From Escherichia phage vB-Eco-KMB41: 41,822 nt of DNA. Location of the stretch: the sequence record OR539216.1; one strand, 5' to 3'. Shown piece by piece: positions 24,762 through 36,756 of this stretch. Both the position numbers and the translations under genes were made by a program. Within the stretch, counting starts at the first letter, position 1. Every line of letters begins with the position of its first letter. The notes below the pieces were generated by a model. The model did not search any database, was not told where the DNA came from, and saw only the letters and a program-made list of their open reading frames with translations.

Positions 24762-24790
24762 ATAAAAAAAGGGGAGCCAATGGCTCCCCC
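24762..24790 (-). terminator. Rho-independent terminator after coat gene (minus sense: GGGGGAGCC-loop-GGCTCCCC + T7)
   Basis: Long GC stem followed by TTTTTTT on the minus strand just downstream of the coat stop. Confidence 0.75.
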
Positions 24791-24812
24791 TTCTGCGAGT
24801 GCTTTCGCGCTC

Positions 24813-26072
24813 TTACGACTGCTTAGGCAGTACCAGGCCGACATATTCCGGCACGAGGACGGAGGTCCCGTACAGGGTAGTGAATCGGCAAGTGGTCACG
24901 CCCGCGATGTGATCGAACGCGTAGGACATGATCAGCGTCGCGCCCTGTTTGGTGGTGGCTCGCATTACCTGCGGACCTTGACCAGTAGGGAACGCCAGAT
25001 TACCGAACATCAGTTCCACGGAGCCGTCGGCCCACAGGAGGTTAGCGTTAGCCGCTGCCTTGTTGATCACGGTCAGCGCTGCGCCGGAGGCCGCGTTCGC
25101 GTCCACGTTCGCGTAAGGGCGAGATGGCACGTCGGCATTGTTCGGCGGCAGGATCTGAGGGGTGATCGTGATGTTGTTGCCGGAAACATCCAGGACGCGG
25201 AACACTTGAGGGGTGTCCGTGGTGTCCTTGCTGATCATGTGAACCATGTTCACGCCCGCGATGGTGAACGCGTCGCCAGCTTCCAGGCCGTGACCAGCGG
25301 AAACGGAGATGATGCCCTGGCGGTTATCGACCGGGAGATCGTTCGCGTCTTTCGCTACGACTTTGTGAGCCGGAGCGGAGGCCAGCGTGATCGCGCCAGT
25401 CGGGCCAGCGCCCAGTCGTGCGGAGATGTCGGTCTGGTACGAGTCAAAGCCCGCAACGTCCGGGATCTTCGCCTTTTCGTAGGCGGTCTGGGTCAGACCT
25501 GCGGCGTATTGACGTCCGCCCAGTTCTTTAGCCAGATCTTTGTAAGAGAACGCGTTCCAGAAGGAGCGCTTATTCACGCCCTGCGGGATGCCGATCGAGG
25601 TGAACTGAGCGCCCACTTGTGCGGCTGCGTCCCACAGATCGAGGCCCAGGGTCCCCTGAGAGTTATCGCCTACCGGGATCACATGGGTAGCGTAACGCGC
25701 TGCGGTAGCGATCAGGTCGGAGTCGATCTTCGCTGCTACACGCTGGCCCGCTGCTCGGCCCATTTCTTTCTTGTGCTCCGGGTCGCGCATCTCGCGAGCG
25801 TCCAATTTCCACAGGACGTTCTGAGGCTCTTTAAAAGCCGACGGGACGAGACGCTGGACGATATCGGTCCCGGTTTTCCCGGTCAGGTCCAGACCTTCGA
25901 TGATATCCGCGTGATAACGCTGCGGACGGTATTCAACGTCCCCGGCGCGTTGCATCGCGGTATCGCTTGGGCGGTATTTCGCGGCGTTCTGCGATACCAC
26001 GCAAGACGCTTCGAAGCTCTCCACATACTCCTCGAAAGCGATTTCGAGGTCCTTCGCTAACTGGTTAGCCAT
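24813..26072 (-). CDS. major capsid (coat) protein, P22 gp5-like
   Basis: Blocks match P22 coat as recalled (AKYRPSDTAMQR, RPYANVDANAASGAALTVIN, LLWADGSVEL); 419 aa; followed by a strong terminator. Confidence 0.9.
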   Translation of the reverse strand: MANQLAKDLEIAFEEYVESFEASCVVSQNAAKYRPSDTAMQRAGDVEYRPQRYHADIIEGLDLTGKTGTDIVQRLVPSAFKEPQNVLWKLDAREMRDPEHKKEMGRAAGQRVAAKIDSDLIATAARYATHVIPVGDNSQGTLGLDLWDAAAQVGAQFTSIGIPQGVNKRSFWNAFSYKDLAKELGGRQYAAGLTQTAYEKAKIPDVAGFDSYQTDISARLGAGPTGAITLASAPAHKVVAKDANDLPVDNRQGIISVSAGHGLEAGDAFTIAGVNMVHMISKDTTDTPQVFRVLDVSGNNITITPQILPPNNADVPSRPYANVDANAASGAALTVINKAAANANLLWADGSVELMFGNLAFPTGQGPQVMRATTKQGATLIMSYAFDHIAGVTTCRFTTLYGTSVLVPEYVGLVLPKQS

Positions 26073-28071: not shown

Positions 28072-28359
28072 TCTGATTTGAATCTCGTCCCACTCGCTCC
28101 AGTGCTCATACTGAGCCAGCCAGCGGCGGAGACGTTCACGGCGTCGGTAGGTTGCAGCCAGCCCGCGCCCGTCACTTTTCCGTAATTTGATCCGGTGGAG
28201 TACGCGCTCCAGCGGCTCGCCGTCAGGACGGAAACCGCGCAAAATGACCGCCGTCTCCTCCTCGTTAATGTAGATCGTGAACTTGTTACATTTGTGCTCG
28301 CGCAAGTGGGCTTTTACGATGCAAAGCCACTCAATTTTAGAGAGGCGATGTTTTTTCAT
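28054..28359 (-). CDS. hypothetical basic protein (101 aa)
   Basis: ORF visibly more AT-rich than its surroundings; 4-nt overlap with upstream 77-aa ORF; no P22 counterpart at this position. Confidence 0.6.
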   Translation of the reverse strand: MKKHRLSKIEWLCIVKAHLREHKCNKFTIYINEEETAVILRGFRPDGEPLERVLHRIKLRKSDGRGLAATYRRRERLRRWLAQYEHWSEWDEIQIRKSTNC

Positions 28360-28589
28360 GCGTAAGCCCCTTCGAAGGTGGTCAGCGATAAGCCGCTGTA
28401 GTAGTGATTCAGTTCGTACACGACGCCCAGGCCATCAGCCCCGGCGCTTACTGGTTCCAGCACGAGGATTGTTATCCGGTGCGTGTCGGTTCGCTTATCT
28501 TCTGGCAACGGCTCCACGCGCTGGATGTTCTTCGCTGCGATCAGATACTTGTCGCCCGCGCTGTCAATAACTGGAATTAAGCCTCTCAC
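28356..28589 (-). CDS. hypothetical protein (77 aa)
   Basis: ORF with GTG start preceded by AAGGAG SD; forms an overlapping pair with 28054..28359. Confidence 0.55.
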   Translation of the reverse strand: MRGLIPVIDSAGDKYLIAAKNIQRVEPLPEDKRTDTHRITILVLEPVSAGADGLGVVYELNHYYSGLSLTTFEGAYA

Positions 28590-28629
28590 GTTTTGCTCCT
28601 TGTAACTGTTTAGTGATGTGTCGAGGCAA

Positions 28630-28655
28630 AGAATAGCCCGGACTTGCCGGGCTTG
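28630..28655 (-). terminator. Terminator-like hairpin after portal gene (AGCCCGG-loop-CCGGGCT)
   Basis: 7-bp GC stem followed in minus sense by ATTCTTT, about 30 bp downstream of the portal stop. Confidence 0.45.
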
Positions 28656-28683
28656 TCTTTAGCTTTTCGTGCGGTCAGACCAG

Positions 28684-30918
28684 TTAGACGCCTTCGAGTC
28701 CCATCTGGCGGTCTGCGGTCTGCCGGGCTTGCTGCTCTGCCAGTTCCTGCGCCCGCTGGTCGCTCTGCTGGCTGTAGCCCTGGCCCTGAGCCTTGAGGAA
28801 CAGATCCGCCTGTTTGTGGGCGTCGCTGTTCTGCTGGCTCACGTACTTCTGGAGGACGGCGATCGCGTTCAATAGCTGATCCTGCGGGATTGCCGCCGCC
28901 TCTGCCATCGTCTTGACCGTCTGGGCGTTTTTCAGTTGACCGTCGGACGCGGTGCTCTGCGCTTTCAGGGTCAGATCTAAACGCTTGTTCTCCTGCTCCA
29001 TCACTGCGGCCTTGCCCTGGTCGGCTACGCCCTGCGCGGCTACCATTTCGGCGTCCGGCTGGCTCTGGGAGGCTTGCTGGGCCTGGGCGACCATCGCCTT
29101 TTCTTCGTCCGTCTGCGGCTTGATGATGCCATTCAGGAGAAGCTGGCGGCGGCTGTATTCTTTGAAGTCCTGCAAGCCTTCGCCGTCCATGTTCATGATG
29201 ATCAGGCCCATGACTACAGCGGCGTTCGGGTCGCCTGGTGCCATCGACTGGAGGAGATTCGTCAGGCTGCGAACGGTTGCGACGCGCTTCGTCTGGGAGG
29301 ATTCGCCCACGTCGGCCTCGACCTCATATTTCCCGCGCTTGAGGTCGTTAATCGCGATCGCCTCGTCAGTGTCACGGTCGATCACTTTCCCGGTCATTAA
29401 CACGAGATCGTCCGTTCCGTCCTCGTTCTTGATGCGGACATAGTTCTCCGAGCCGTAGACCTTGCGGGCCGCGCTGAGGTAAACGCGTCCGCAATGGCGG
29501 AGGGTTTTCCCCAGGTTGTCCATGTAGAGAGCGCCCTGTCCGTCCATGCGGGCGAAAATGGCCTCCACGGTTTCGGTCGCCAGGTTCGACGGTAGCGCCT
29601 CCACCTGGGACGAGCCGACGATCTGCTGGATAGTGCTCCCGGTGTACTGTAGGACCGCTGCCAGCGCCGGAGAGAGCGGAGTCGATGGCGTGTATCCTAA
29701 CGGCCCGGCTTGCTGCACGACCTCACCAGCGGCATTACGGAGCGATTTCGCGGGCAAGTATGCCGGGCGCTTCGTGTTACGTTCCCCCCAGGCGTCCGCC
29801 AGCTTGCCGGGAATCATATCAATGTCCATGATCGGGATGTTATCGCCGCCAGACTGCGCGGCCTGGTCCGCCATCATGGACACGATCAGGTTTTCCAGAC
29901 GTTGCGCGTCGAGGGCCTGGGTCGCATGACCGCTTACGCGCTCCATGTTGTCGATGAAGGAGCGGCGGGCGTTGAACACGAAGATCGGGATCCACTCGAA
30001 CGGGATCAGCTTCGGCTCCTCCAGCCATTCGCCGCCAGTCATAAGGCCGCAATAGACCTTACGGCGTTTCACCTTGCGGTCCTTCTGGCGCTCCCAGCCT
30101 CCGGCCTTAAGCTCGTCCTCGATCTGTTCGATATCGTCCTCGTCGTAGACCTCCACCTCCCCGGTGATCGGGTTCTTATAGGAGATCACGGTGGTGTCCT
30201 CGATCTTCACCTCGTAGTAGCGGGCGATGTAGATCGCGTCCTTCGTGGCCCAGTCGAATTGTTTCCCGGTATCGATCGCCATCAGGTCCTCCGGTGCGAG
30301 GGCATCGGGATAGCGCTCCTCGTACTTGTCCGGGGTCATGCTGAATAGCTCCGCCATCCACATAGCATCACTGCGATCGTACATTTTGGAGTCCTGATCG
30401 ACGAACAGGCACGAGGCCGGATCATAGATCGGATAAAACACGATATGCCGCGTCTCGTTGTCCGGGTCGAACTCGTCCTCCAGTTCGGTGTCCATGCGGA
30501 AAGCGCCCATTCCCCCGGTCACGCCGTCGTCGTAGGTGTTGTCTACGGCTTCCGGCCCGTTTGACTCCTGGAAGTCGGCGCGAAACTTGCCGTTCAGCTT
30601 GTCCGCCAGTTCCTCGGAGGCCTGGGTGTCTTTCGGGCGGAACGTCACGGAGACGCGGTTCAGGCGGTAGTCGGAAATGATGCGATCGACCTCGCGCCCG
30701 ACTTTGTTAAGTTCGAATCGAGGGTATTTCTGGAAACGCTCGTCGTCCATAGCAAAGCCGGAGTTCGTCGAGCCTTCCCACTGAGCGCCGGGGATGCGGA
30801 CGAAGCGGGCCGTCTCGATCATCTTCTTGCGGCTCTGCTCCTCGCTGCCGATCGCGGCGCTTAATTTGTTTCGGGCGCATTCCTGCCAGTTCTGCGCCTT
30901 CTTCGTGACTCGTGCCAT
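28684..30918 (-). CDS. portal protein (P22 gp1-like)
   Basis: Blocks match P22 portal as recalled (YDRSDA, ARYYEVK, NPITGEVEVY, RKVKRRKVY) with a Gln/Ala-rich helical C-terminal barrel region; 744 aa. Confidence 0.9.
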   Translation of the reverse strand: MARVTKKAQNWQECARNKLSAAIGSEEQSRKKMIETARFVRIPGAQWEGSTNSGFAMDDERFQKYPRFELNKVGREVDRIISDYRLNRVSVTFRPKDTQASEELADKLNGKFRADFQESNGPEAVDNTYDDGVTGGMGAFRMDTELEDEFDPDNETRHIVFYPIYDPASCLFVDQDSKMYDRSDAMWMAELFSMTPDKYEERYPDALAPEDLMAIDTGKQFDWATKDAIYIARYYEVKIEDTTVISYKNPITGEVEVYDEDDIEQIEDELKAGGWERQKDRKVKRRKVYCGLMTGGEWLEEPKLIPFEWIPIFVFNARRSFIDNMERVSGHATQALDAQRLENLIVSMMADQAAQSGGDNIPIMDIDMIPGKLADAWGERNTKRPAYLPAKSLRNAAGEVVQQAGPLGYTPSTPLSPALAAVLQYTGSTIQQIVGSSQVEALPSNLATETVEAIFARMDGQGALYMDNLGKTLRHCGRVYLSAARKVYGSENYVRIKNEDGTDDLVLMTGKVIDRDTDEAIAINDLKRGKYEVEADVGESSQTKRVATVRSLTNLLQSMAPGDPNAAVVMGLIIMNMDGEGLQDFKEYSRRQLLLNGIIKPQTDEEKAMVAQAQQASQSQPDAEMVAAQGVADQGKAAVMEQENKRLDLTLKAQSTASDGQLKNAQTVKTMAEAAAIPQDQLLNAIAVLQKYVSQQNSDAHKQADLFLKAQGQGYSQQSDQRAQELAEQQARQTADRQMGLEGV

Positions 30919-30933
30919 GTTAATCTCCGGGGG

Positions 30934-32556
30934 TTAGCGGTTACTCGGCACATTATAGCCGGAATAATCTTCGTCTTTCACTGCCTCCGGTGGCTGCATT
31001 AACATGCAAAGCACGTCAGCCATCCCCGGCGACTTCATTTTGAGTTTGGTCCGCATCTGCGGCTTAGGCATCCTAGCAAATTTTCCGTTGGTGTTATAAA
31101 TACGCGGAATACGGCACACTTCCGCGCGGAGTTTGGTCATATGCTCCCCGATCCCCTCGCTGTCGAGGCTGATCATCTCGTCCGGGTTGTGATATTCGCC
31201 CTTTACTACCGCCTGGTAGGTCTTTTCGAAGCGCTTCCGTAAGAGGTAGATGTCCTGGGAGCCACGGTTCGCGAACGCGTCCACGTTCTTCTGAATGTTG
31301 TCCCCGCTGGCCTTGTTGTTCAGCCAGTGATCCAGCTCCACCGGGTTGTCCGGGAACTTCACGCCGTCCCCGGCGTTGTAGCCGTCTACGAGGACCTTCG
31401 TCCCGGCGTAAGCCTCCGTGACCTGGCGACGTAAGCCAGCGCCCAGTCCCGCGCGGTCCCACACGAACGCCTCCACGCCGTGATCCTTCGCCGTGTTGAT
31501 CGCCTTGTCTACGCTGTCGTTCGCGTCCCCTTCGAACCACTCCTCCATGTGAGTGACTACGGAGCCGTAGCGCTCGCCGTAAGCCTTGTTATCCGCGCCA
31601 ACGTCCGCCGGGTCGAGTGCGCCGATACGCATCCCCGAAGGCTTCCATCCGAGTTTCTTGTGGGCGTCCACGGCTGCGTCGAACCATTCCGCCGGGATAA
31701 TGGCGTCAGGAACAGAATCGTTAAAATGGCCTTCCCATACGTGGTTAAACAGCGCTTTCGAGAGGGTTACGCGGTCGAACTCCATCTCCGATCGAAGCTC
31801 TGGGGGGAACCACGGATTATCTGACCAGTTCACGCGGATAATCAGGTGGAGATCGTCCTCGTAGATGCCGTCCCGCTGGAGATCCTCCCAGAATGGGATG
31901 AGAAAACGTTGAGAGAACGCATCCTCCGAGGATCCGGGGTTGGCGGTGAACAGCATCATGCCGCCCGTTTCGCGCATGGTCGGGGTTAACTGGCGGAGAG
32001 ACTCGGCGGAAAAGGTCTGCGCCTCCTCGCCCCAGAAGCGACGGAAGCCGAACGCGGACTTAACTCCCGCCGGGTCCCTGGCCATCCCCTTAAATCGGAT
32101 GATCGCGCCGTTGGAGTGGCGGATCTCCTTCTCCAGTACCTCGAAGCCGTCCAGCCCGTAAGCCTCGATCCGGTTGACGAGGAGCGGGTGGACTGAATCC
32201 TTGATCGATGCCTGATACTCACGGAGACACATCGCGCTCGCTGCCTCGTCGTGGGCGTCAGCGTCGATGATCCCCCCGACGGTGAGCGACTTCCCGGAGC
32301 CACGTCCGCCGACCAGGATAATAAAGCGCTTCGGACGGAGGAGGATCGGGGTCAGGACCTCGGCGATCGTGATGTCGTGCGGCTCACTGGTGTAAACCCA
32401 TTCGCCCTTTACTTTTTTCATGTTGTAGAGGTGCTTCGCGCTGGTCCCGTCCGGCTCATATACGCCGTAGATCAGCCCGCCCTCTCGCGCCACGTAAGCG
32501 GCCCGCCCCTCCAGGCGAGCCAGTCGATCGAGATTATCCTTTCTGTTTTTTGCCAT
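30934..32556 (-). CDS. terminase large subunit
   Basis: N-terminal ATPase with Walker A VGGRGSGKS, C-terminal nuclease-like region, position immediately upstream of portal. Confidence 0.9.
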   Translation of the reverse strand: MAKNRKDNLDRLARLEGRAAYVAREGGLIYGVYEPDGTSAKHLYNMKKVKGEWVYTSEPHDITIAEVLTPILLRPKRFIILVGGRGSGKSLTVGGIIDADAHDEAASAMCLREYQASIKDSVHPLLVNRIEAYGLDGFEVLEKEIRHSNGAIIRFKGMARDPAGVKSAFGFRRFWGEEAQTFSAESLRQLTPTMRETGGMMLFTANPGSSEDAFSQRFLIPFWEDLQRDGIYEDDLHLIIRVNWSDNPWFPPELRSEMEFDRVTLSKALFNHVWEGHFNDSVPDAIIPAEWFDAAVDAHKKLGWKPSGMRIGALDPADVGADNKAYGERYGSVVTHMEEWFEGDANDSVDKAINTAKDHGVEAFVWDRAGLGAGLRRQVTEAYAGTKVLVDGYNAGDGVKFPDNPVELDHWLNNKASGDNIQKNVDAFANRGSQDIYLLRKRFEKTYQAVVKGEYHNPDEMISLDSEGIGEHMTKLRAEVCRIPRIYNTNGKFARMPKPQMRTKLKMKSPGMADVLCMLMQPPEAVKDEDYSGYNVPSNR

Positions 32557-32971
32557 AGCCCAGATCCTGGAATGATCGTTCCGTCATATGGAATAAATGC
32601 CCCACCAGATACGCCTCCGGCTCGTCGTTGTTGGCGTCGTGCGTGAATCCAAGCGTGTCGGCGATGAAGTTCTTAACGTGGACCAGTTCGTGGGCGATGG
32701 TCGTCCGCCAGTGCGGCCCACGCTTTACTCCCACTAAGACCAGTTTCACGCCGTCGTCCGCGTGGTACTCCGTGGCGCTGCCCTGCGGGAAAGGATCAAG
32801 CATGGCCCACCGTGGGAAGCATTCGAGCATTTTCCCCACCATCTCCTCGTCCTGCGGGTCGTAACATACAATAAAGTAAGGGTAAGGTGAGGCGGTGAAC
32901 CATTTCAGGCCCAGCGCCTCCAGTCTGCCGTAAGTGTCCGGCGGTAGCTTATTCTTGCGGGTTCTCGCCAT
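32534..32971 (-). CDS. hypothetical protein with HExxH zinc-metallopeptidase-like motif (145 aa)
   Basis: IAHELVHV followed by EPEAY about 25 residues downstream; sits between TerS-like and TerL with 23-nt overlaps on both sides. Confidence 0.55.
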   Translation of the reverse strand: MARTRKNKLPPDTYGRLEALGLKWFTASPYPYFIVCYDPQDEEMVGKMLECFPRWAMLDPFPQGSATEYHADDGVKLVLVGVKRGPHWRTTIAHELVHVKNFIADTLGFTHDANNDEPEAYLVGHLFHMTERSFQDLGYGKKQKG

Positions 32972-33503
32972 TCAGTCGGGCCTCCAGTGCGTCCAGACGC
33001 TTGACCATCTCGGACATTTCGAACACTTCCGCGCCGTGGCGGATCATCTTCACCATTGCCTCCGCCGCGTCGAACGGTAGCTCCCCATTCGCCACCAGGT
33101 CCTCGATCTCGGTGATACGCTCGGACGGGGTGGATCCGGTCAGTTCAAAGCAATAGGTCGGGCTGGTCGGCTTCGTGTAGGGGATTAAGCGGCTCATGAT
33201 ATCGCGCATCATGGATCCGTCTACCATTGCCATCTGGATCGCTCGCTGGATGAAGATATCCTCCGTAAGTTGGATCTCCTCGTACTCGTCAACCATGATC
33301 GGCTCGCCCGTCTCCGGGTCGCGCTTCACCTCGCCAGTGTTGGGATCGACGTCCTCGACCTTGCGCCCGGTGCGCTCCTTGATGCGGACTTTTTTCAGCG
33401 CTTCGAGGAGTAACGTCCGGTTCTGCTTCGCCCGGCCCCGGCGCTCTGGCTGGTTGTCTTTGGAGAACTTCTTCCCCTTCGTTAAATTCTGTTCGTTAGC
33501 CAC
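32949..33503 (-). CDS. putative terminase small subunit
   Basis: Basic N-terminus (KGKKFSKDNQPERRGRAKQNRTLLLEALKK), acidic helical remainder, two genes upstream of TerL; assignment positional and compositional only. Confidence 0.5.
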   Translation of the reverse strand: MANEQNLTKGKKFSKDNQPERRGRAKQNRTLLLEALKKVRIKERTGRKVEDVDPNTGEVKRDPETGEPIMVDEYEEIQLTEDIFIQRAIQMAMVDGSMMRDIMSRLIPYTKPTSPTYCFELTGSTPSERITEIEDLVANGELPFDAAEAMVKMIRHGAEVFEMSEMVKRLDALEARLNGENPQE

Positions 33504-33576
33504 AAAAAAATCCTCCGTTTATCGCCTGAGTCTCACAGGGTTACGCGGAGGATTATCGGCGGTTACGGAACAGTGA

Positions 33577-33876
33577 TCAAGCCCGCTTAAACGAGAGGTC
33601 AGGGCATAGGTGCATATTCTCGGCGGTTATCGGCCAGGGGCTTACGGGGTGATTGAATGCCAGCGTGTCCCGCTTCTTCGCCACATAGCCCCGACTCTTG
33701 CCCTTCGGCTCCGCCAGGCTGGCGCACAGCACACAAGCGCCGTTTGACGTGTACCGGGTGAAGTTCCCGCCGTGGGTCTTGCACTCCGGCCCGTAGTACG
33801 TCCGGGCCTTGAGGAGACGCGCCTCCGCCTTGTTCTTCGCCGTGACCTTGTTCGGCTCCTTGCTCTGCCAGCCCAT
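33577..33876 (-). CDS. hypothetical Cys-containing basic protein (99 aa)
   Basis: Contains GPECKTHGG...ACVLC; overlapping alternative-frame ORF 33599..33991 is Arg/Ala-rich and rejected. Confidence 0.55.
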   Translation of the reverse strand: MGWQSKEPNKVTAKNKAEARLLKARTYYGPECKTHGGNFTRYTSNGACVLCASLAEPKGKSRGYVAKKRDTLAFNHPVSPWPITAENMHLCPDLSFKRA

Positions 33877-34439
33877 CAGTCACAGCCCCCCGGTGAGGTG
33901 TAGGATCCGCCGCTGTCTCCGCTGTCATAGCTCGGTGACGGGTCGTAGCTGGGCGAGTGGTGCGTGACTGGCTCGCACACGGACGGCTCACTGGAGGCGC
34001 TCGTGTGGCGGTGGCTGCTGTCGTCCCAGTCGTTCAGCGGATTGAGCGGGGAGATCGGGGAAGGCGGGTTTAACGGGTTGAGGAGGTGCATCGGGTCCGA
34101 GATCGGATCCTGCTGCGTTCCGCGCGCTGCCGGGCGTGGGTCCTGCGCCATAGCGCGGGCAAGCTGGGCCGCTCGTGGGTCGCGGTGCTGCGCTGCCTTC
34201 GCTGCCTGGCGCTGTTTGGCGATCACGCTCTGCGGTAGGTACGCCGGGCGCTGTTCCGCCAGCCTCTCCTGAGCGCGGCGTGACTGCTCCAGATGTCCCT
34301 CGCTCTGGGTGATCATATCGCGAATGGCGCGGCGGGTGTCTGCCTGGCACTCGTCACACTGATAAATGTCCGCCTCTGTCCAGCGACGCGGCTCCGTCTT
34401 GCCACATGTGCGGCACTCTTTGAAACGTTGTATTGACAT
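33876..34439 (-). CDS. zinc-ribbon protein with Pro/Ser-rich low-complexity C-terminus (187 aa)
   Basis: N-terminal CRTCG...CDEC (CxxC-N17-CxxC), then repeats NPLNPPSPISPLNPLN and SPSYDPSPSYDSGDSGGSY. Confidence 0.6.
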   Translation of the reverse strand: MSIQRFKECRTCGKTEPRRWTEADIYQCDECQADTRRAIRDMITQSEGHLEQSRRAQERLAEQRPAYLPQSVIAKQRQAAKAAQHRDPRAAQLARAMAQDPRPAARGTQQDPISDPMHLLNPLNPPSPISPLNPLNDWDDSSHRHTSASSEPSVCEPVTHHSPSYDPSPSYDSGDSGGSYTSPGGCD

Positions 34440-34504
34440 TGTTCGATCTCTCTCGTGGGTGGAAACGGCCCCAGCATATCGCCGGGGCGTACATCATGCA
34501 AGCG

Positions 34505-34687
34505 TTATCTAATGAAGGTATGGAAGAACCACAGCAGACCACAGACGCACAGGAACAGCGTCACGCCGCGCCATACCAGATCGAACCAGTCGATCGAGGT
34601 GTCCGGCTCTGCTGGTACGACTACCCAGCCCGCCGCGATCTCGCGCTTCTTCGCTTCGTGTTCTGCCAGCGTTACCGGGGGACGCAT
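34505..34687 (-). CDS. small membrane protein (about 60 aa)
   Basis: Start set at internal Met (MRPPVT...); C-terminal hydrophobic segment LFLCVCGLLWFF; the longer form overlaps the upstream gene with Arg-rich sequence. Confidence 0.45.
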   Translation of the reverse strand: MRPPVTLAEHEAKKREIAAGWVVVPAEPDTSIDWFDLVWRGVTLFLCVCGLLWFFHTFIR

Positions 34688-34728
34688 AACGAAAAAGGGG
34701 GCGTTACGATCCCCCCAGGCGCTGGCCC

Positions 34729-35673
34729 TCACTTTACGACGCGGTAGCGCTTCACGTCGGCCCATTCAACCACGGACGAGTCCAGGGTGACGCGATCGCC
34801 GCTGGTCAGTTCAAGCTCCAGCAACGTGTCGCGGTTGAGAGACTTCGGCGCGTAGCCCCATTCCCACACGGTCCAGCCTTCGTCCTGCTCGCCAGTCTGC
34901 GGACGGTCCAGCAGTACGTCCATGAGTTCGGACGCTGCCGCCACGCGGATCTCCCCGTTGTTGTTCATGCGGTGGATAAGCTGGCGGACCGCTTCGTGGC
35001 GCTTGACGTGCCAGCGGAGGCTCTGTTCCGTCTCCTGGCGCTTGCGCTCGGCGAAGTGGTTCAGGCGATCGCCGTCCGTTTCGCAGTTGGTCAGGCGCTC
35101 GGTCGCCTCTGCCGCCTGGACGGTGTGGCGGAGTGCTGCGGTCGGTAACTTGAACACGTTCCAGTTATACGGGATCCGCTTCTCGTCGCAAGCCTTCACG
35201 TAACGGCCCAGCAGGTCCACGCGGGCCTCGGCGTCCTCTGCTGCCTTGCGGTTGCGCTCGGAGTTCTCGCTGTTCGCCACCAGCGCCCGCGCCCGCTGCT
35301 CGGTGTACTGGATATGCTTCGGCTTGCCCGGCTTCGGGTTGAAGTAGTGCGGGACGTCCTGCGTCCCCAGGATCACGCGAAGGTCCACGTAGTAGCCGCC
35401 GATCCGTTCGTTGTCCTCGCGCATACGTTCCGCCAGCGCTTCCAGTTCGCGCTCGCGGGTCTTGTCGCGCCACTTCTCGGACTCGGAGAACACGCGGGCC
35501 AGCGCCTCGTCGGAGAGGAGCGGGAGGTGATGTTCCGCCAGGTCTGGCTCCGGTTTGAAGCCCTGCGCCATCGCGTCGCGAATGTCGGCGAGGTGGATCT
35601 GGCGAGTGGTAAGGCGTTGACGCTGTTCAATGGTCAGGCAAGCGTAGAGCAAGCCCTGATCGTGTGAGTTCAT
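34729..35673 (-). CDS. hypothetical protein (314 aa)
   Basis: Long ORF with balanced composition and predicted helical content; preceded by GAAA-tetraloop hairpin and CCAGAGGA SD. Confidence 0.7.
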   Translation of the reverse strand: MNSHDQGLLYACLTIEQRQRLTTRQIHLADIRDAMAQGFKPEPDLAEHHLPLLSDEALARVFSESEKWRDKTRERELEALAERMREDNERIGGYYVDLRVILGTQDVPHYFNPKPGKPKHIQYTEQRARALVANSENSERNRKAAEDAEARVDLLGRYVKACDEKRIPYNWNVFKLPTAALRHTVQAAEATERLTNCETDGDRLNHFAERKRQETEQSLRWHVKRHEAVRQLIHRMNNNGEIRVAAASELMDVLLDRPQTGEQDEGWTVWEWGYAPKSLNRDTLLELELTSGDRVTLDSSVVEWADVKRYRVVK

Positions 35674-35718
35674 GCTGTAGATCCTCTGGTTGGTTGGCCC
35701 CTTTCGGGGCCGGGTTGG

Positions 35719-36048
35719 TTAGAACTTGATAGCCGGGATGTAAACGGACTCTTTCGCGCCACCTTTCAGGCTGGACGCTGCCACACATCCCCCGGTGATC
35801 CAGTGCTCCAGGTTGATTTTGCCGCCCGCTGCGTTGATGCGCTCCAGCAGGTGCTCCGCCTGTTCGCGTGTCTCAAAGACCGCGTAATGATAAAGCTCGT
35901 CGTAATAGCTGTCGTATGTAGCGGCGAACAGCATCTTAACGCGGAAGGCCGGGAGGCGCTTCGGCATGTCGCGGCCCACGCGCTCGTCGAAGGCTTTCTC
36001 TGTTTTGCTGTAGAAAAGCGGGGATTCAATTTCGAAGTATGTAGCCAT
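35719..36048 (-). CDS. hypothetical protein (109 aa)
   Basis: Start set at MATYFE (GGAGAC SD); the ORF track's 224-aa form would run through the promoter module and the neighbouring membrane-protein gene. Confidence 0.65.
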   Translation of the reverse strand: MATYFEIESPLFYSKTEKAFDERVGRDMPKRLPAFRVKMLFAATYDSYYDELYHYAVFETREQAEHLLERINAAGGKINLEHWITGGCVAASSLKGGAKESVYIPAIKF

Positions 36049-36120
36049 TTTGTCGTCTCCAGTTGGGCGGGACCATTTCCCGCCTCTGGAAATAACTATA
36101 CAGTGATTTATCAAATGTGT

Positions 36121-36139
36121 TTTAGCAATTCGTGCTATT
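36121..36139 (-). promoter_or_regulatory. Palindromic box site 5 (TAGCA-ATTCG-TGCTA, perfect)
   Basis: Followed about 22 bp downstream (minus sense) by TATAGT, then GGCGGGA-loop-TCCCGCC hairpin, SD and ATG at 36048; overlaps the stop codon of 36135..36416. Confidence 0.55.
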
Positions 36140-36416
36140 CGTCCCAGCGCCCCGGCTTGAACAGGACGCCGCGCCGCCAGTCCTGCCACGTCCAGTAAGG
36201 CCAGCCAAACGCCATCAGCACGACGGCGCATATCAGCATAAGCGCGACGATGAAGGCCGCGAGGGGTAGGAGGGCTGGCGGGATGTGCGCCGCCTCCTTG
36301 CGCGTCAGGTTGGCGAGGTGCTTCGCCCCGCCTCCCTGGGTGAACTCGACCACGAACCAGGCTATGCCGACCAGCCACCACGCGAAGATCCAATTTAACA
36401 TTTCAATACATCCCAT
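36135..36416 (-). CDS. small integral membrane protein (93 aa)
   Basis: Two strongly hydrophobic segments (WIFAWWLVGIAWFVV and LPLAAFIVALMLICAVVLMAF). Confidence 0.6.
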   Translation of the reverse strand: MGCIEMLNWIFAWWLVGIAWFVVEFTQGGGAKHLANLTRKEAAHIPPALLPLAAFIVALMLICAVVLMAFGWPYWTWQDWRRGVLFKPGRWDE

Positions 36417-36756
36417 TAGTGAGTAAGTATAAGCGCCCGTTCCTCATGGAGCGGACCATCTGCGAGGATCCCCAGCCTCCCGGCACTCGGTACATCATGC
36501 CGTTAGCGCCCCGGCAGTAGAGGCGGTTACGGTCGCGGAAGCCGCGAAGCTGTCGCCCTGTCTGCGTCCCCTTCGGGTCCACGATGCGGCAGAATACCGG
36601 AGCGCCGCCGTATAGCTGCGTAAGGTCGTGAATGTGCTTACGCTGGGCTTGCTGGACCATCTCCTCCGCCTCTTTCCATGCGCATGACTCGCACAGGCCG
36701 GAGGCAGTACCCGCCGCGATCGGCAGGTGGCAACGTCGGCAGTAACTAAAGACCAT
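36403..36756 (-). CDS. zinc-ribbon protein (117 aa)
   Basis: N-terminal CRRCH...CESC (CxxC-N12-CxxC) motif. Confidence 0.6.
   Translation of the reverse strand: MVFSYCRRCHLPIAAGTASGLCESCAWKEAEEMVQQAQRKHIHDLTQLYGGAPVFCRIVDPKGTQTGRQLRGFRDRNRLYCRGANGMMYRVPGGWGSSQMVRSMRNGRLYLLTNGMY

Follow-up and report, generated by a model that had tools for sequence, protein, structure and literature searches.

Among the gluzincins (MEROPS clan MA(E)), the M1 aminopeptidases carry the motif HExxH-x18-E and thermolysin (M4) the motif HExxH-x19-E, and in both an Asn precedes the Glu (N-E). In SprT-type proteases, the third ligand is a His. The minigluzincins (proabylysin and projannalysin) and the Zincin_1-type protein 3e11 are what we take to be the close minimal zincins. 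Here, these systems are compared with X145, a protein of 145 amino acids encoded by Escherichia phage vB-Eco-KMB41 (OR539216.1). The window analyzed is the whole stretch of 41,822 nucleotides (41.8 kb), which is essentially the entire genome of a podophage with P22-type head genes. Judged from its sequence and its predicted structure, X145 is, with a probability of roughly 0.6, an active minimal zinc metallohydrolase of the gluzincin type. An earlier note on this DNA had drawn attention to a 145-residue protein with HELVH and a downstream Glu in EPEAY; both are indeed present, HELVH at residues 94-98 and EPEAY within NDEPEAY at residues 115-121. The gene and its motif codons are located as follows:

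32534..32971, minus strand: X145, a 145-residue standalone zincin-like protein with an ATG start codon, member of PHROG 1365 (open reading frame (ORF) call, PHROG match, 443 homologous clusters, and the ratio of nonsynonymous to synonymous substitution rates, dN/dS)
32678..32692, minus strand: HELVH codons, residues 94-98, with both His proposed to bind zinc and the Glu proposed as catalytic (residue invariance, predicted helix)
32609..32629, minus strand: NDEPEAY codons, residues 115-121, with E117 as the proposed third zinc ligand (residue conservation, predicted helix)

Conservation of the X145 Family

A word-indexed homolog search yielded eight close relatives, none of them with an informative name, in which H94, E95, H98, E117 and E119 are among the invariant positions. 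A profile search of 1.84 billion representatives extended the family to 443 clusters (50% identity) at E <= 1e-3, and among the clusters listed, nearly all are standalone proteins of about 110-150 residues. When 95 diverse members were aligned (mean column identity 17%), H94, E95, H98 and E117 were the sole invariant residues, with N115, D116, A120 and Y121 conserved in at least 90% of the sequences. In 93 of these 95 relatives, a spacing of 18 residues separates the second His and the Glu, giving HExxH-x18-E. At the level of sequence, the HExxH of X145 is a true family signature and not a chance match. Compared with the homolog of the Enterobacteria phage IME_EC2, X145 shows a dN/dS of 0.29, which marks it as a real coding gene under purifying selection.

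The only orthologous group recognized is PHROG 1365 (function unknown), which X145 matches with an E-value of 5.1e-16 (59.8 bits; residues 66-143 against positions 49-125 of the 127 in the profile). The matched region bears the HExxH and NDExxAY, and the N-terminal 65 residues fall outside it. A Pfam scan of the 95 relatives gave weak matches, foremost to zincin families: SprT-like in 11 of them (best E 3e-4), DUF5700 in eight, and one or two each to M91, Tox-MPTase4, M85, M61 and M78. Neither the close profile (A1) nor the broad one (A2) gave a significant match among the PDB sequences; the top alignment was to an HtpX homolog, over the HExxH, at E 0.29. Literature searches found no paper on the X145 gene or on the PHROG 1365 family.

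The isoelectric point (pI) of X145 is 6.4 (family median 6.1), its grand average of hydropathy (GRAVY) is -0.50, and it contains only two Cys, not arranged in a cluster. A secreted or membrane protease was considered and rejected, as the protein is hydrophilic by this GRAVY value and shows no hydrophobic N-terminus by sequence inspection.

One partial homolog carries a different annotation. In the record of Salmonella phage Lumpael (MK125141.1, positions 2-154), only residues 85-137 of X145 are matched, and the product is called a 'putative recombinase'. This label looks like an artefact of the linear record opening inside the X145 homolog.

Predicted Structure

An AlphaFold2 model of X145 was built from a nine-sequence alignment and reached a predicted local distance difference test score (pLDDT) of 84.6 and a predicted template modeling score (pTM) of 0.81. 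It begins with a helix (residues 13-20), two strands (23-26 and 32-37), a second helix (42-51) and two further strands (64-70 and 76-82). The helix that follows, residues 88-107, holds the HExxH, and the next one, residues 113-136, holds E117. As modeled, X145 follows the minimal zincin plan, with a small sheet succeeded first by the active-site helix and then by a "glutamate helix". The zinc-peptidase signature proposed in the earlier note is thus borne out, being both kept throughout the family and placed on two consecutive predicted helices.

In a Foldseek search of the model against the PDB, nothing was found below E 0.09. Against predicted viral structures, 25 matches were obtained at E <= 1e-3. 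The named matches are nearly all uncharacterized phage proteins; one is SprT-like, and a weaker one (E 1e-2) is a metalloprotease. Small terminases, a structural match to which the earlier note had put forward as the result that would speak against a peptidase, are absent from both lists of top structure matches.

The same data bear on the question of whether the protein is an enzyme at all. X145 could be a catalytically inert zincin-like protein, serving as a binding protein, an inhibitor or a decoy, in which the motif is kept for structure or metal binding. Its fold has no close counterpart among solved enzymes, the family proteins are very small for proteases, and no activity is known for any member. 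However, active zincins of about 105-115 residues, the minigluzincins, are known, and the base E95 is invariant along with both His and E117 over 95 highly diverged sequences, while pseudo-enzymes usually lose the base. An inert protein is, hence, considered improbable.

Comparison with Known Zinc Peptidases

X145 resembles the gluzincins in carrying the HExxH on one helix and the invariant Glu, 18 residues later, on the next. Both gluzincin features, a helix-borne HExxH and a Glu in the third-ligand position on the following helix, are found in its sequence and predicted secondary structure. In addition, a conserved Asn stands before the Glu in the X145 family, which recalls the N-E of M1 and M4. 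The family differs from the gluzincins in its size of about 110-145 residues, without extra domains, and neither the PDB profile searches nor Foldseek gave a significant sequence or structure match of X145 to any gluzincin.

The SprT-like/Wss1/Spartan proteases (PF10263) show another kind of likeness: theirs is the commonest weak Pfam match in the family, they occur among the viral structural neighbors, and several family members are encoded beside DNA enzymes. An SprT-like regulator had been one suggestion of the earlier note. It is not supported, as the PF10263 profile does not match X145 at E-values up to 1, and the 11 relatives that it does match do so at 3e-4 or weaker. No conserved His follows the HExxH in the family, where the invariant residue is instead E117. 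Moreover, X145 contains neither a zinc ribbon nor a basic DNA-binding region, in line with its pI of 6.4.

Gene Layout around X145

Close relatives of the phage are ST231, with ~90% nucleotide identity over the first 25 kb of the window and 89% over the packaging block, and IME_EC2, with ~86-88%; both belong to the genus Murrayvirus. Sortsne, sortkaff and Klebsiella phage IME279 (genus Sortsnevirus) are remoter. X145 is surrounded by the following features:

33552..33580, minus strand: promoter-like site TTGATC-17-GATAAT, 9/12, just upstream of the 184-residue protein gene (consensus match only)
32949..33503, minus strand: 184-residue protein of PHROG 9747, proposed as the small terminase from its position only (location)
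32981..32985, minus strand: GGAGG ribosome-binding site of X145, 9 nucleotides 5' of the ATG and within the 3' end of the 184-residue protein gene (sequence read)
32949..32971, minus strand: 23-nucleotide overlap between the end of the 184-residue protein gene and the start of X145 (ORF coordinates)
32534..32556, minus strand: 23 nucleotides shared by the 3' end of X145 and the 5' end of the large terminase gene (ORF coordinates)
30934..32556, minus strand: large terminase subunit (TerL), 540 residues (Pfam Terminase_3, E 1.8e-31; PHROG 2)
28684..30918, minus strand: P22-type portal protein, the gene after TerL (Pfam P22_portal, E 1.8e-155)

The 23-nucleotide overlaps with both neighbors, already mentioned in the earlier note, are exact by the ORF coordinates. 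The description of X145 as wedged between the small and the large terminase holds for the large subunit, identified by its Terminase_3 domain; the gene on the other side is a small terminase (TerS) by its position only. From the sequence, translation of X145 may be coupled to that of the 184-residue protein at their overlap. At the other end, the C-terminal GYGKK is invariant in the close relatives, probably because of the overlap with TerL (dual coding). The promoter-like site could be the start of a packaging operon, and no terminator-like sites were found on the minus strand in the scanned region 30800-36500. In IME_EC2 and IME279, the annotations show the same three-gene layout with overlaps, and all three genes upstream of TerL are annotated "hypothetical".

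The 184-residue protein is the best TerS candidate, a call made from position only. Its gene is the first after the promoter-like site, with a strong GGAGGA 5' of a GTG start, and the protein has a basic N-terminal arm, predicted helices and a long C-terminal helix. The structure model is poor (pLDDT 68, pTM 0.34). In searches of Pfam, PHROG and the PDB sequences, only PHROG 9747 (function unknown) was matched, and comparison with a P22-gp3-type TerS by hhalign gave a probability of 0.2%, the only shared element being a 7-residue KGNxFxK stretch (KGxxFSK). Among all fetched loci, a hidden Markov model (HMM) of the protein matches only the Murrayvirus and Sortsnevirus homologs, and a variable 9-residue insertion (KRDPETGEP, at about residues 62-70) lies inside a predicted beta-hairpin. 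No profile so far identifies a small terminase in Murrayvirus and Sortsnevirus; if the 184-residue protein is one, it represents an unannotated TerS family.

Three further observations concern other parts of the window. At 24780-26060 (+) and 24813-26072 (-), two ORFs of 426 and 419 residues cover the major capsid region on opposite strands; the minus-strand ORF is 75% identical to the IME279 capsid protein, and the plus-strand ORF is therefore probably a non-coding shadow. At 33876-34439 (-), a 187-residue protein is encoded whose N-terminal part resembles a zinc ribbon (CxxC...CxxC, with weak matches to Zn_ribbon in Pfam) and whose C-terminus is of low complexity and rich in Pro, Ser and Asn (PLNPLNPPSPISPLNPLN..., SPSYDPSPSYD). 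Finally, when the interval 28100-28680 is compared with positions 31636-32811 of IME279, the portal-to-scaffold genes of 138, 90 and 145 residues in IME279 are without a match in the window at E <= 1e-3. The portal-scaffold interval is a second variable slot in an otherwise conserved block of head genes.

Divergence in Murrayvirus and Sortsnevirus

IME279 carries a 146-residue gene in the identical slot. Its product aligns to the X145 family by hhalign with a probability of 98.3% (E 1e-14) and retains the motifs as HENVH and NDEHQAY. Between the window and IME279, the identity of the two X145-type proteins is only 27-30%, compared with 85% for TerL, 83-84% for the portal and 61-63% for the 184-residue protein. 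Among the IME279 genes with a syntenic match in the window, this one is the least conserved, and it adjoins the two most conserved. The same trend is seen with the closer IME_EC2, where dN is 0.18 for X145, 0.04 for TerL and 0.07 for the 184-residue protein gene. Two explanations would fit: very rapid evolution of the gene everywhere but in its catalytic core, or exchange of its alleles by recombination while the slot stays the same. Either behavior is typical of an accessory gene that meets variable host factors.

Family Distribution and Genomic Contexts

The distribution of the family was searched with a degenerate DNA pattern for NDE[PA]EAY[LF], which covers the members with that version of the motif. 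In viral contigs, the pattern gave 81 matches, 72 of which lie in a small ORF with an HExxH 14-24 residues upstream. Bacterial and archaeal genomes, 596 Gb in all, gave 80 matches, and only three of them are ORFs of the family. As far as this sequence pattern reaches, the family is restricted to phages and rare in prophages. One of the three ORFs encodes a 141-residue member close to the sortkaff-type relatives; it was found on a 42,764-bp contig (QFQS01000013.1, locus L112) labeled as a metagenome-assembled genome (MAG) of Cereibacter sphaeroides. As long as a complete genome of the Sortsnevirus kind, this contig looks like a sortkaff-like phage mis-binned in the Cereibacter MAG.

Phage restriction and rarity in prophages argue against a lysogeny regulator of the ImmA type, the other regulator suggested in the earlier note. 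An ImmA/IrrE-type protease would switch phage expression by cutting a transcription factor, such as a repressor. The Peptidase_M78 profile (PF06114) does not match X145 and matches a single one of the 95 relatives, at E 0.064. Unlike ImmA/IrrE/CapP genes, X145 has no partner repressor: its neighbors are the 184-residue protein gene and TerL. No helix-turn-helix (HTH) family recurs among 116 neighbor proteins of family members, with a single HTH_36 match. The host phages show no signs of lysogeny in the regions examined. Prophage ImmA genes are plentiful in bacterial chromosomes, yet the motif is almost never found there. A regulatory protease of this kind is therefore very improbable.

The 72 viral loci were reduced to 29 non-redundant clusters at 80% identity, and their contexts vary. 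In Klebsiella phage 37P2, the family member follows DNA polymerase I; in Flavobacterium phage Fpv5, it lies between two DNA methyltransferases and, in Croceibacter phage P2559Y, upstream of two methyltransferases. In a T4-like Mosigvirus, it is part of the variable region between nrdG and gene 55, and in a P22-like Proteus phage it comes behind the lysis genes, where the record ends. Other members lie beside a GIY-YIG endonuclease and a 652-residue protein without a Pfam match, or near a primase-helicase.

The commonest identifiable neighbors are, nevertheless, packaging genes (TerS, TerL, portal), with TerL within four genes of the family member in 10 of the 29 loci. The view that a protease-like gene in a packaging operon is unusual is weakened by this count. 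Two layouts recur. In the first, the family gene is upstream of TerL: at position +1 in the group of the present phage, +2 in loci L045 and L068, +3 in L080 and +4 in L027. In the second, the order is TerS, TerL, portal and family gene (L009, L032, L048 and L076). In L068, the family gene is followed by a Pfam-verified TerS of the P22-gp3 type (GP3_package) and TerL, and in L032 (Terminase_2) and L048 (Sf6_terminase), a verified TerS precedes TerL, portal and the family gene.

These arrangements decide on the proposal, also raised earlier, that X145 is the true small terminase with an HExxH arising by chance. Its place directly upstream of TerL, with an overlap, is all that speaks for it. The motif is invariant across the family, and X145 has no match to a TerS profile or fold. 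Homologs coexist with verified small terminases in L068, L032 and L048, and others lie far from any terminase; X145 is, therefore, not the small terminase, and the contrary can practically be dismissed.

A more substantial alternative is a protease of packaging or head assembly, which would trim the portal, scaffold or terminase, or clear DNA-bound proteins ahead of the motor in the manner of SprT/Wss1. It would account for the proximity of TerL, for the two recurrent layouts and for the overlaps of X145 with both neighbors, to which it may be translationally coupled; SprT-like being the commonest weak Pfam match among the relatives points the same way. The association with packaging genes is suggestive and modest, however: ~34% of the loci show it, where 10-16% would be expected by a rough estimate that was not computed, and the lack of phylogenetic independence among the loci means that it is not robust. 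Many members are encoded at a distance from packaging genes, in replication modules, methyltransferase clusters and variable regions. If the partner were as strongly conserved as TerL and the portal are (84-85%), the 27-30% identity of the X145-type proteins would also be left unexplained. P22-type heads are not known to use a protease in their maturation. As to clearing of the DNA, X145 has a pI of 6.4 and no evident DNA-binding element, and its third-ligand position is occupied by Glu, not by the His of SprT. This role is, hence, regarded as unlikely, though less so than those discussed above.

GroEL-like chaperonin genes occur in six of the 29 non-redundant loci (L017, L025, L033, L008, L039 and L066), as in L017:6097-7662 (+), with a Pfam Cpn60_TCP1 match at E 1.9e-63. 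In three of the six, the chaperonin gene is within three genes of the family member. This co-occurrence could reflect a shared phage ancestry or mean that protease and chaperonin are functionally linked.

Proposed Function of X145

In the reading that we favor, X145 would be a cytoplasmic single-domain enzyme and probably a gluzincin-type endopeptidase. The zinc would be bound by His94 and His98 from one helix and by Glu117 from the helix after it, and Glu95 would act as the catalytic base. X145 lies between the probable small terminase and TerL and overlaps both; hence, its production probably coincides with that of the packaging proteins, late in infection. The gene would be accessory and not a terminase component, as the varied genomic positions of the family also indicate. 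A fixed slot and a kept catalytic motif, with extreme divergence elsewhere, fit an enzyme acting on a variable partner. The likeliest partner would be a host protein, in host takeover or counter-defence. The substrate is thus probably on the host side, a statement made with much lower confidence than the assignment of the enzyme class. We infer zinc binding and catalysis, and likewise when X145 is expressed and what type of substrate it acts on.

Several points weigh against this reading. The shared metal site of H94, H98 and E117 is a prediction from the sequence and the order of secondary structure elements. Scans of X145 against Pfam and NCBIfam gave no family at threshold, and the annotated phage homologs among those listed are all called "hypothetical". 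Folds with an HExxH can also hydrolyse non-peptide substrates. The host-directed or counter-defence role is drawn from context and evolutionary rate alone; a PADLOC scan of X145 matched no model, in a library that covers defence systems and not anti-defence genes. To these points is added the lack of a known activity for any family member, considered above with the alternative of an inert protein.

A more specific proposal would make PHROG 1365 a phage-specific class of minimal zinc proteases tied to DNA packaging. In one version, X145 would be a counter-defence enzyme, produced together with terminase and portal, that destroys the host immune sensors (Avs-type) of those proteins. The recurrent place of the gene by TerS, TerL or portal, the putative translational coupling and the divergence outside the catalytic motif would all be explained. 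This proposal is speculative and, at present, is held to be doubtful.

Significance

X145 itself is homologous to annotated hypothetical proteins of known phages. New here is the recognition of a distinct, undescribed, phage-only family of minimal gluzincin-like proteins that, in this lineage, combines a conserved slot with a hypervariable sequence. Two tempting annotations are corrected, since X145 is neither a small terminase nor an ImmA/SprT homolog. Neither a Pfam entry nor a solved structure exists for the PHROG 1365 family, and no study of a member is known. If the prediction is true, these proteins of ~110-145 residues make up a widespread protease family, with 443 clusters (50% identity), that is nearly confined to phages. 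The slot beside the most conserved genes and the invariant core, in the fastest-diverging of the syntenic genes, form the pattern expected of an arms race with the host. Given this pattern, it is reasonable to consider X145 as a candidate enzyme of anti-defence or host takeover that would be new.

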